This document shows positions 16,059 through 16,820 of a DNA stretch of 32,000 nt, piece after piece. The notes under the pieces are model-generated. The model did no database searches, had not been told where the DNA came from, and worked only from the letters and a program-made list of their open reading frames with translations. Every line of letters starts with the position of its first letter. Within the stretch, counting starts at the first letter, position 1. The DNA is from Thermodesulfobacteriota bacterium (GTDB lineage: Bacteria > Desulfobacterota > WTBG01 > JAGOGO01). The DNA lies in NCBI GenBank assembly GCA_026625185.1, contig CP113000.1, positions 1,605,622-1,637,621 on the forward strand, read 5' to 3'. A program made the translations under genes and the position numbers.

Positions 16059-16580
16059 ATGCCAGTAGCTGACTACAAAACGTATGGTAGGATGATTGAC
16101 CATGCTAACCAAAAGAATTTTGCTTACCCGGCCATAAACGTTACCTCTCTCGCAACGGCCAATGCTGTTTTGAAAGGTCTGGCAGAGAGCAAGAGCGATG
16201 GAATCATTCAGGTTACGACCGGTGGTGCAGCCTTTGCTTCCGGATTGTATCTCAAGGACATGCCGCTGGGGGCGATATCCATCGCCGAGCACCTGCACCG
16301 CGTGGCGGAGCATTATCCCATCTATGTGACTCTGCATACAGATCACTGCCGGCTCAATATCGACAACGATATCCAGTACGCGTTCACGCGCGCTATTGTG
16401 GATCATATGTTGAAAAACTATGACGGCGTCCTTAAAATCGAGAGCGATGTTGGGAACAAGGGAAAATACGATCCCCGTTCCTGTAGGAAGCTGGCCGAGG
16501 CTGCCATGGCCGAACGGGCGAAGCAAACAGTAAACGATCTGAGAGGTGTTGGAACTACCCTTTTTGGAATCTGTTGTTAA
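16059..16580 (+). pseudogene. fba: Class II fructose-bisphosphate aldolase with a large in-frame internal deletion
   Basis: The N-terminal 97 aa match class II FBA up to LHTDHC (Zn ligand). They are joined directly to the C-terminal LNIDNDIQ...KYDPR... block, which corresponds to E. coli FbaA KMNIDTDTQ...KYYDPR. About 170 central codons are missing, including the other Zn-ligand histidines. The result is 173 aa against about 350 expected. Confidence 0.8.
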
Positions 16581-16626
16581 AAGAAACATTAAACGAGTCG
16601 AAAAATTATTACTCAAGGAGTTCTTT

Positions 16627-16686
16627 ATAGCTGCAAAGGTTGCTATTAGCGGATTTGGAAGAATCGGAAGGCTCGCCATCATTTGA
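16627..16686 (+). pseudogene. gap: 5' stub of glyceraldehyde-3-phosphate dehydrogenase (19 codons)
   Basis: AAGGAG (16615-16620) and a 6-nt spacer are followed by ATA GCT GCA AAG GTT GCT ATT AGC GGA TTT GGA AGA ATC GGA AGG CTC GCC ATC ATT TGA, which translates to IAAKVAISGFGRIGRLAII*. This matches the GAPDH N-terminal NAD-binding signature KV.INGFGRIGR; the ATA sits where an ATG would be expected. Confidence 0.6.
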
Positions 16687-16795
16687 AAAAGCAGGACTGC
16701 GAGAAAAGATCTTTTTCGATCCTTCGAAATCCAAGTGCAGTTTTGTCACCTGCAGCGGCCTTTGCACAGGCTTAAATAATGCGATAATGGCCATG
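16685..16795 (+). pseudogene. pfk: Internal fragment of a second 6-phosphofructokinase gene (about 37 codons)
   Basis: EKAGLREKIFFDPSKSKCSFVTCSGLCTGLNNAIMAM aligns with [37 protein letters not shown] of the intact pfk at 11264-12565, with 24 of 37 residues identical by hand alignment. Many synonymous differences are present and active-site Gly/Pro residues are substituted. Confidence 0.7.
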
Positions 16796-16820
16796 AATGA
16801 TGAAGAGCAGGGGGAAAGAG

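Follow-up and report, generated by a model that had tools for sequence, protein, structure and literature searches.

What is left in front of a gene when the operon ahead of it has been deleted, and how is that gene then expressed? This testable question is posed by a locus of ORM2a, a benzene-fermenting bacterium from the methanogenic benzene-degrading consortium DGG-B/OR. The window, which is the whole stretch of DNA that was analysed, comprises 32,000 nucleotides of contig CP113000.1 (positions 1,605,622 to 1,637,621 of the forward strand). At positions 16059–16820 of its + strand, pieces of three glycolytic genes lie head to tail: a class II fructose-bisphosphate aldolase (FBA; fba'), a glyceraldehyde-3-phosphate dehydrogenase of type I (GAPDH; gap') and a phosphofructokinase (PFK; pfk'). 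They are followed by an intact pyruvate kinase gene (pyk), and the stretch from 16059 to the pyk start is 762 bp long. The original prediction, made from the sequence alone, had placed the three pieces in this order and on this strand, and profile searches confirm both their positions and their homology.

These 762 bp are very probably non-functional remains, left by the three genes that once headed an ancestral fba-gap-pfk-pyk(-glgP ...) cluster. The evidence consists of intact homologues at the syntenic site, disabling lesions together with relaxed constraint, and redundancy as given by published annotation. As such, the locus is a clear but ordinary instance of redundant genes decaying, since pseudogene remnants are already a known kind of element. 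The fossil is well documented: intact relatives make every junction readable and the same cluster erodes in parallel in related lineages.

Three remnants and their lesions

The largest remnant, fba', retains clear homology to class II FBA. It matches PF01116 with an E value of 7.8e-23 (81.8 bits against a cut-off of 25.5) and NCBIfam PRK09197 in two stretches with an E value of 3.1e-49, where its 167.9 bits stay below the cut-off of 297. Thus, it belongs to the family by homology and lacks a full-length barrel above the equivalog cut-off. In an alignment with FBA of M. tuberculosis (3EKL, 349 aa; E 3.4e-51), residues 1–99 of fba' pair with chain positions 1–99 and residues 96–168 with 270–342. 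Residues 100–269 of 3EKL have no counterpart, so that about 170 central residues are gone, in agreement with the predicted loss of the central half. The intact orthologues in relatives are 340–365 aa long (n=11), as opposed to 173 aa for fba'. Relative to fba at the locus designated L086, the deletion measures 513 bp or 171 codons and is in frame, and the stop of fba' sits at about the end of the relatives' FBA genes.

What remains is colinear with class II (type A) FBA (3EKL; E. coli FbaA, 1B57), in that the N-terminal 99 and the C-terminal ~73 residues, with the HTDHC and NIDxD motifs, are kept. Without the ~170 central residues, however, neither the (beta/alpha)8 barrel nor a full metal site can be formed. 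The GNVHG and FHGGS motifs, conserved in the relatives, fall within the deleted block (alignment columns ~119–315); from the three-histidine metal site and the mobile loop, fba' retains the HTDHC histidine alone. Based on published FBA structures, we take GNVHG and FHGGS to be the other two zinc ligands, so that the deleted span presumably holds two of the three zinc-binding histidines and the catalytic loop.

Two other proposals for this region were not borne out. A 7-bp direct repeat, CAAGATG, flanks the deletion end points in L099 and L011, and a simple microhomology origin of the fba deletion was considered; it predicts HCQAKMNID at the junction, where the observed sequence is HCRLNID, and is thus not supported. 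Opposite fba', an antisense open reading frame (ORF) of 216 aa (16032–16682, -) was dismissed as a gene: it has no Pfam match and relatives have similar shadow ORFs opposite fba.

The second remnant is a stub of gap. It had been predicted as 19 GAPDH codons still behind an AAGGAG; the ribosome-binding site (RBS) and GAPDH codons are there, the homologous part is 16–17 codons long, and it had been overlooked that the start codon is now ATA. The codons read ATA GCT GCA AAG GTT GCT ATT AGC GGA TTT GGA AGA ATC GGA AGG CTC (the stretch AAKVAISGFGRIGRL), and homology ends at 16674/16675. Positions 16612–16674, with the RBS, the start and the first 16 codons, align without gaps to gap of L009 at 49 of 63 nucleotides (78%). 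The motif KVAISGFGRIGRL of the N-terminal NAD-binding region matches PF00044 over profile positions 2–15 only (E 0.0035; 18 bits against a cut-off of 31.7). The profile match alone is weak, as the piece is short; its position and the DNA alignment make the assignment to gap a convincing one. Type I GAPDH has an NAD-binding N-terminal and a catalytic C-terminal domain (PF00044 and PF02800, TIGR01534), ~335–355 aa and a start codon, of which the ~17 codons of gap' can hold very little. The TGA at 16684–16686 ends its reading frame and overlaps codons of the pfk frame, as predicted.

The third remnant, pfk', had been put at about 37 codons; it is present and 40 codons long. It matches NCBIfam PRK06830 with 51 bits against a cut-off of 400 (E 7.5e-14). 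It does not have the full PFK domain (PF00365 / PRK06830) with an intact motif: the nucleotide-binding motif TCGGxCPGxN reads TCSGLCTGLN, with Gly to Ser and Pro to Thr among the replacements. The junction between gap and pfk lies at 16675/16676, with ...GGAAGGCTCG on the gap side and CCATCATTTGAAAAAGCAGGA on the pfk side. Measured on L009, the stretch missing here spans 1,199 bp and runs from codon 17 of gap to codon 53 of pfk. Here, a single deletion was predicted to have removed the 3' part of gap together with the 5' part of pfk, and gap codon ~17 is indeed joined directly to pfk codon ~53. At the other end, pfk homology stops at GCC ATG (16790–16795) and the 3' junction with the pyk leader falls within GCCATG.

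Constraint on the fragments was assessed by the excess of nonsynonymous divergence (dN) and by counts of changes at invariant sites. The ratio of nonsynonymous to synonymous divergence (dN/dS) to relatives is of little use, as synonymous sites are near saturation (proportion of synonymous differences, pS, 0.53–0.89). Among 91 positions that are constant in 11 intact FBA orthologues, fba' has changed 13, compared with 0–4 in leave-one-out controls. Its dN to L086 is 0.089 against 0.039–0.044 among intact orthologues over the same codons, an excess of ~0.05, and its identity to the corresponding parts in relatives is 75–86%. For comparison, dN in glgP is 0.090 between the window and L086 and 0.096 between L099 and L086, so that the window is not the more distant of the two. 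For pfk', 6 of the 19 positions constant in 19 intact PFKs have changed (0–2 in controls), and dN to orthologues is 0.25–0.30 against 0.04–0.13 among intact genes, an excess of ~0.15–0.2. The fragments are therefore under relaxed constraint, the pfk piece more than the fba piece. Because the dN excess is larger in pfk' than in fba', pfk would have been inactivated before fba.

The intact cluster and its repeated erosion

Relatives were found with the pyk protein as query in one genome per GTDB species and in metagenomes of the Joint Genome Institute (JGI); the matches are 70–80% identical, none closer. In L009 (LT984854, 'Desulfobacterium sp. TRIP AH-1') the whole cluster is present, with fba at 6337–7434, gap at 7473–8537, pfk at 8565–9851 and pyk at 9983–11434. 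Beyond pyk follow a cation exchanger, glgP, an ldh/mdh-like gene, ferredoxin and AFOR. L155 has gap-pfk-pyk-glgP, and L106 and L109 have gap-pfk-pyk. The order in the window is fba'-gap'-pfk'-pyk-glgP-gpmA'-ferredoxin-AFOR, and intact homologues in the same order occupy the syntenic site in L009, L155, L106, L109, L086 and L099. The search for an intact fba-gap-pfk-pyk locus, proposed with the original prediction, came out positive with L009, where glgP, ferredoxin and AFOR follow as in the window.

Gene order, strand and flanks (glgP, ferredoxin, AFOR) are shared between the window and this cluster of uncultured Desulfobacterota. Unlike the relatives, the window is without ~2.8 of the 3.6 kb, and none of its three upstream genes can encode an enzyme. 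From the fba start to the pyk start, L009 measures 3,601 bp and the window 762 bp, which is 2,839 bp less; the three mapped deletions (~0.51, 1.20 and 1.12 kb) sum to ~2.83 kb. They explain the compression and bear out the prediction of at least three deletions that spared pyk, which is intact (TIGR01064, 505 bits).

Three deletions, listed here by position, destroyed the genes of the locus: an in-frame one of ~513 bp within fba, directly behind the HTDHC motif; one of ~1.20 kb that begins at about codon 17 of gap and reaches about codon 53 of pfk; and one of ~1.12 kb that begins at about codon 93 of pfk and stops ~30 bp short of pyk. The change of the gap start codon from ATG to ATA is an additional lesion. 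Today, the remnants would have no enzymatic role and would be carried only as the 5' leader of the pyk transcript.

Remnants of gap, fba or pfk also stand ahead of pyk in at least five related lineages (Table 1). Their break points differ from lineage to lineage and are all unlike those of the window, and the erosion events are therefore independent of the one described here. In L099, L086 and L011, the gene, the cluster and the process (deletion leaving short ends) are as in the window; the window, however, keeps just the first ~17 gap codons, whereas both ends survive in L099 and only 3' codons in L086 and L011. To all appearances, L099 and its close relative L011 show one gap erosion at two stages. 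As the search used pyk, this gene is intact by construction in the lineages found. Independent decay of this cluster in a number of related lineages suggests that its redundancy with dispersed glycolytic genes is old and is being resolved time and again. The original prediction had called such clean erosion by several deletions unusual outside reductive genomes. The junctions are readable as claimed; the erosion is not unique, given the at least five related lineages, and the 3.3 Mb host is not classically reduced.

Compression of this kind could also be produced by assembly collapse or a chimera, an explanation in favour of which nothing was found and that has virtually no probability. ORM2a is a closed 3.30 Mb candidate metagenome-assembled genome of the Desulfobacterota (CP113000.1; GTDB BSN033/UBA8473), which was assembled from PacBio and Illumina reads as a hybrid at 979–1765x coverage (PMC10190668). 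Window positions 15900–16900 are 100% identical in four JGI assemblies; in three of these the identity extends over ~20 kb, and in a Logan assembly over 8 kb. Two of the sources, IMG 3300019861 and 3300028923, are DGG-B metagenomes, and one is a PacBio hybrid. Because the sequence is identical in several assemblies and in the closed genome, mis-assembly, the concern raised with the original prediction, is very unlikely. The agreement spans samples, years and methods, including the PacBio hybrid and a closed circular genome at ~1000–1765x. In addition, a collapse would not yield an in-frame internal deletion, a start-codon mutation and clustered substitutions at invariant residues. One apparent sister strain, a 487-aa member of the pyk cluster (P0002/L166), was discarded: its DNA is 100% identical and merely carries a different start call.

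Several observations weigh against decay as the explanation. The fba' frame has stayed open for 173 codons, its start is the native one, the deletion is in frame, and NCBI annotates it as a normal protein (WAC09061.1, 'class II fructose-bisphosphate aldolase') with no pseudogene flag. A rough estimate of ~0.05 neutral substitutions per site since inactivation leads to an expectation of ~1 stop and a few indels in 519 bp, so that the intact frame is mildly unexpected, and a residual function of the half-FBA protein is formally possible. The ancestral state is drawn from relatives just 70–80% identical in pyk, and all assemblies come from one culture lineage, which is the level at which the identity of the sequence holds, as distinct from the level of populations. 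Lastly, for pyk itself no spectra are listed in the available part of the published proteome table (PMC13101534, suppl.). Chance, on the other hand, or weak selection acting against polarity, could account for an open fba' frame.

A rival explanation holds that the 173-aa FBA-like ORF, and perhaps also a 66-aa ORF in the pfk frame, are functional, conserved short proteins. The frame of fba' is open between its native start and stop, the gene is called by JGI and by the Prokaryotic Genome Annotation Pipeline (PGAP), and its score lies above the Pfam gathering threshold. Yet the TIM barrel lacks residues 100–269, substitutions are in excess at invariant sites and the protein reaches 168 of the 297 bits of the NCBIfam cut-off. 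Its protein cluster consists of fba' and shorter alternative gene calls of 162 and 57 aa, all known to date from no contigs other than those identical in sequence to the window. The original prediction would be contradicted by relatives with the same short ORFs; the FBAs listed for relatives are full length or other fragments, and none carries the deletion of the window. Finally, WAC09061.1 was not found in the available parts of the published glycolysis and proteome tables (PMC13101534, suppl.). Functional short proteins are accordingly highly improbable and the pieces are better read as remnants. The JGI call of a 66-aa gene (window region 16640–16840) is the frame of the pfk remnant running into the pyk start.

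Table 1. Coordinates of the remnants, of their neighbours in the window and of remnants at related loci
Locus	Feature	Position	Strand	Remarks
Window	Intact ATP-PFK (WAC09057.1, OS130_07725)	11264–12565	-	other pfk lineage
Window	fba', class II FBA pseudogene	16059–16580	+	open 173-codon ORF; stop 16578–16580
Window	fba', N part	16059–16349	+	ends ...HTDHC; CAC TGC (HC) at 16344–16349
Window	fba', junction codons CGG CTC	16350–16355	+	two codons, assigned to neither side
Window	fba', C part	16356–16577	+	begins NIDNDIQYAF; AAT ATC GAC (NID) at 16356
Window	gap', type I GAPDH stub	16615–16686	+	RBS, former start, 16–17 codons, then pfk-derived sequence to TGA
Window	gap', RBS AAGGAG	16615–16620	+	six bases before former start
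Window	gap', former start ATA	16627–16629	+	ATG in the four relatives compared
Window	pfk'	16676–16795	+	40 codons PSFEKAGLREKIFFDPSKSKCSFVTCSGLCTGLNNAIMAM; residues 53–92 of the relatives' (e.g. L009) cluster PFK
Window	Sigma-70-like promoter match TTTGCA-16-TGcGATAAT	16761–16788	+	inside pfk', 33 nt upstream of pyk ATG; 9/12 + TG
Window	Retained native pyk leader CCATGAATGATGAAGAGCAGGGGGAAAGAG	16791–16820	+	purine-rich ribosome-binding region
Window	pyk, intact pyruvate kinase (WAC09062.1, OS130_07755)	16821–18263	+	TIGR01064, 505 bits
Window	glgP, intact glycogen phosphorylase	18440–20968	+	syntenic; 78–84% aa identity to relatives
Window	gpmA', 5'-truncated 2,3-bisphosphoglycerate-dependent phosphoglycerate mutase	20997–21284	+	C-terminal ~95 of ~250 residues; 30 bp past glgP stop
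L099	gap, N- and C-terminal pieces	8300–8650		between intact fba and pfk
L086	gap, last 26 codons	1330–1480		
L011	gap, last few codons	8636–8680		close relative of L099
L131	fba, ~50 codons	2025–2171		directly before pyk; pyk 77% identical to that of the window
L105	fba, C-terminal fragment	456–784		frameshift and stop; before pyk
L110	gap', fba' and pfk' pieces	8477–9280		before pyk

Two pfk lineages and the redundancy of the lost genes

Besides pfk', the window carries an intact pfk on the opposite strand. The original prediction held that the remnant is not a recent copy of this gene and the comparison agrees: the two share 27 of 47 amino acids, 82 of 141 nucleotides (58%, the lowest value found) and 14 of 47 third positions. 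The nucleotide identity of pfk' is highest to the cluster pfk of L087 and L086 (65–67%, with 22 of 47 third positions) and across the relatives' clusters it is 60–68% identical to the corresponding parts of pfk. The FEKAG signature is common to pfk' and the L009/L086/L087/L155 group, while MELAG and GLND are found in the intact gene, as in L106 and L109. With the L009 group's cluster PFKs, which are 79–88% identical among themselves, the intact PFK shares 68–72% identity, with synonymous sites saturated; with the PFKs of L106, L109 and L012 it shares 73–74%. On the basis of identity, signature and synonymous sites, which together separate pfk' from the intact gene, pfk' is an orthologue of the relatives' cluster pfk, and two pfk lineages coexisted, of which the cluster copy was lost.

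The alternative is that there never was a second pfk, with pfk' being a partial duplicate of the intact gene, or the intact gene being the cluster gene relocated. The two lie just 4 kb apart and 27 of 47 residues match; moreover, in the Syntrophus-like loci L013 and L124, pfk stands beside the same DUF3300 and DUF2950 genes that flank the intact pfk of the window. Against this, the 58% nucleotide identity of the pair is below that of pfk' to any pfk of the L009 group (60–67%). The intact PFK shows 68–72% identity to the PFKs of that group, where orthologues at the phylogenetic distance of the window (judged from glgP) show 79–82%, and the FEKAG of pfk' differs from the MELAG of the intact protein. 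A single pfk lineage is consequently hard to credit, and loss of the cluster copy from a pair of lineages is preferred.

Some details of the intact pfk and its neighbours were recorded alongside. It adjoins the DUF2950 and DUF3300 genes (window 11264–15254, -); in L013 (6304–9983) and L124, both of these, on one strand with pfk and pyk, occupy the space between the two. The order DUF3300, DUF2950, pfk (-) of the window is not a simple inversion of the Syntrophus-like arrangement. A Gly/Arg-rich repeat, GGGGRGGF, stands three to four times at the end of the DUF3300 protein (13959–14100, -) and also gives rise to spurious long ORFs opposite.

Why could three genes be lost? Redundancy in ORM2a was taken from the published KEGG annotation (PMC13101534) as it stands there. 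In the available part of its Table S5b (PMC13101534, suppl. 2), a gap gene, OS130_05965, is listed beside pgk and tpi and was detected in a proteome. The same part of Table S5b (PMC13101534) contains gpmA (OS130_06995) and a cofactor-independent mutase, the pfk genes OS130_07725 (the intact one of the window) and OS130_12800, the FBP aldolase/phosphatase OS130_06660, and K16305/K16306 aldolases. A single pyk, OS130_07755, appears there, and no KEGG Orthology entry for class II FBA (PMC13101534, Table S5b). When L009 GAPDH was compared with a database of 5.8 billion proteins, no second gap on the contig of the window was among the 120 matches listed (at least 79% identity).

The losses may have been tolerated because other genes of ORM2a cover the same steps, namely gap-pgk-tpi, the FBP aldolase/phosphatase, the class-I-type aldolases, another two genes for pfk and one more gpmA; as a single-copy gene, pyk would have been kept. 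The original prediction had postulated a second paralogous operon. Substitutes do exist and the pfk lineage is distinct; they are, however, dispersed genes, and for FBA they belong to non-homologous enzyme classes, so that the postulate applies only loosely.

These findings call for a correction of the annotation: WAC09061.1 is a half-gene and cannot be an aldolase. Therefore, ORM2a is without class II FBA, and its glycolysis and gluconeogenesis must depend on aldolases of the class I type and on the bifunctional FBP aldolase/phosphatase, a point that bears on the reconstruction of carbon flow in a model anaerobic benzene degrader. Deletional decay of redundant genes is classic in Mycobacterium leprae, Rickettsia and insect endosymbionts. 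As in those cases, the fragments in the window have kept their original order and orientation, constraint is relaxed, deletions prevail and the non-redundant gene is kept. Unlike them, the host is free-living and syntrophic with 3.3 Mb, the cluster has eroded independently in several lineages and an in-frame half-gene is annotated as a protein. With every junction mapped against intact relatives, the locus shows neatly how a few large deletions can dismantle an operon in a genome that is not reduced.

Expression of pyk and neighbouring remnants

With the upstream genes decayed, pyk would be transcribed from the old fba promoter and/or from a promoter-like sequence to which the pfk remnant has given rise. 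In L155, L099 and L011, pyk is probably co-transcribed with pfk, judging from the pfk-pyk spacer of just 27–46 bp. On the simplest reading, transcription of pyk in ORM2a would still begin at the old fba promoter and pass through the remnants. A search of the + strand gave no intrinsic terminator between fba' and pyk. The 266-nt leader from fba' to pyk shows no unusual RNA structure (z = -1.0) and an Rfam scan of the whole window gave no RNA family. In an alignment of the 250 bp upstream of fba from 12 loci, nothing was alignable beyond the RBS that could be a conserved operon promoter.

The last part of the leader is native. It resembles the last ~45 nt before pyk of L009 (aaCCATGAATGgtTGATGAAaGCAaGtcgtgacAGGGGGAAtGAGc), a likeness seen by eye in the printed upstream sequences and not a computed alignment, and, again by eye, it matches the ATGATGAAGA element that precedes pyk in L086 and, in part, its counterpart in L087. 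Just upstream, the promoter-like match with its extended -10 was created by substitutions relative to the orthologous pfk codons. Eight such matches occur in 1.8 kb on both strands, versus 3.8±1.9 in shuffled sequences, and the one at 16761–16788 is not individually significant. A promoter within the pfk remnant is hence speculative.

These features raise the possibility that the remnants have been retained for the expression of pyk: by providing the old fba promoter, by a translated fba' that shields the leader from Rho-dependent polarity, and by a new promoter in pfk'. All three deletions are internal, sparing the 5' end of fba and the last ~30 bp before pyk, and the fba' frame is intact despite relaxed constraint. 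The promoter-like match, the lack of a terminator in between and the short pfk-pyk spacers of L155, L099 and L011 point the same way. Conversely, the match is indistinguishable from chance in AT-drifting sequence, the regions upstream of fba are not alignable among relatives, so that no conserved promoter is shown, and an in-frame deletion has one-in-three odds by accident. Retention for pyk expression is thus unlikely, though worth considering; it is compatible with the best explanation, decay of an ancestral cluster, to which it adds a layer of exaptation.

A bolder version, and a rather doubtful one, is that the arrangement is kept as the expression platform of the single-copy pyk, with the fba promoter, the half-fba ORF as protection against Rho-type termination and a new sigma-70-type promoter, and that recurrent erosion is a repeatable route to it. 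If this were true, operons would repeatedly be whittled down to one indispensable gene while the expression signals of that gene survive.

Decay of the ancestral cluster also extends past pyk. The original prediction had confined the erosion to 16059–16820, where the three remnants do lie; it reaches further, to gpmA' and to an ldh/mdh-like gene missing after glgP. The latter is absent in the window; L099 has it between glgP and gpmA, and in L009 and L086 it follows glgP directly. The truncated gpmA' is 88% identical to residues ~165–258 of GpmA of L106, where the gene is full length, and marks a fourth deletion that struck this ancestral cluster.

Beyond the cluster, another gene stub occurs within the same 8 kb. 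Directly after AFOR, positions 23551–23664 (+) encode the first 38 codons of a phosphate acetyltransferase (pta) of ~700 aa (AAA_26-DRTGG-PTA_PTB; PF13500, E 5e-7). It is cut where a transposase-like HTH_32 ORF lies opposite (23615–24043, -). The adjoining part of the window, 23600–27000, has a low coding density, several short ORFs without a Pfam match and a GC content of 0.39–0.49, and it may hold more decayed or mobile DNA.

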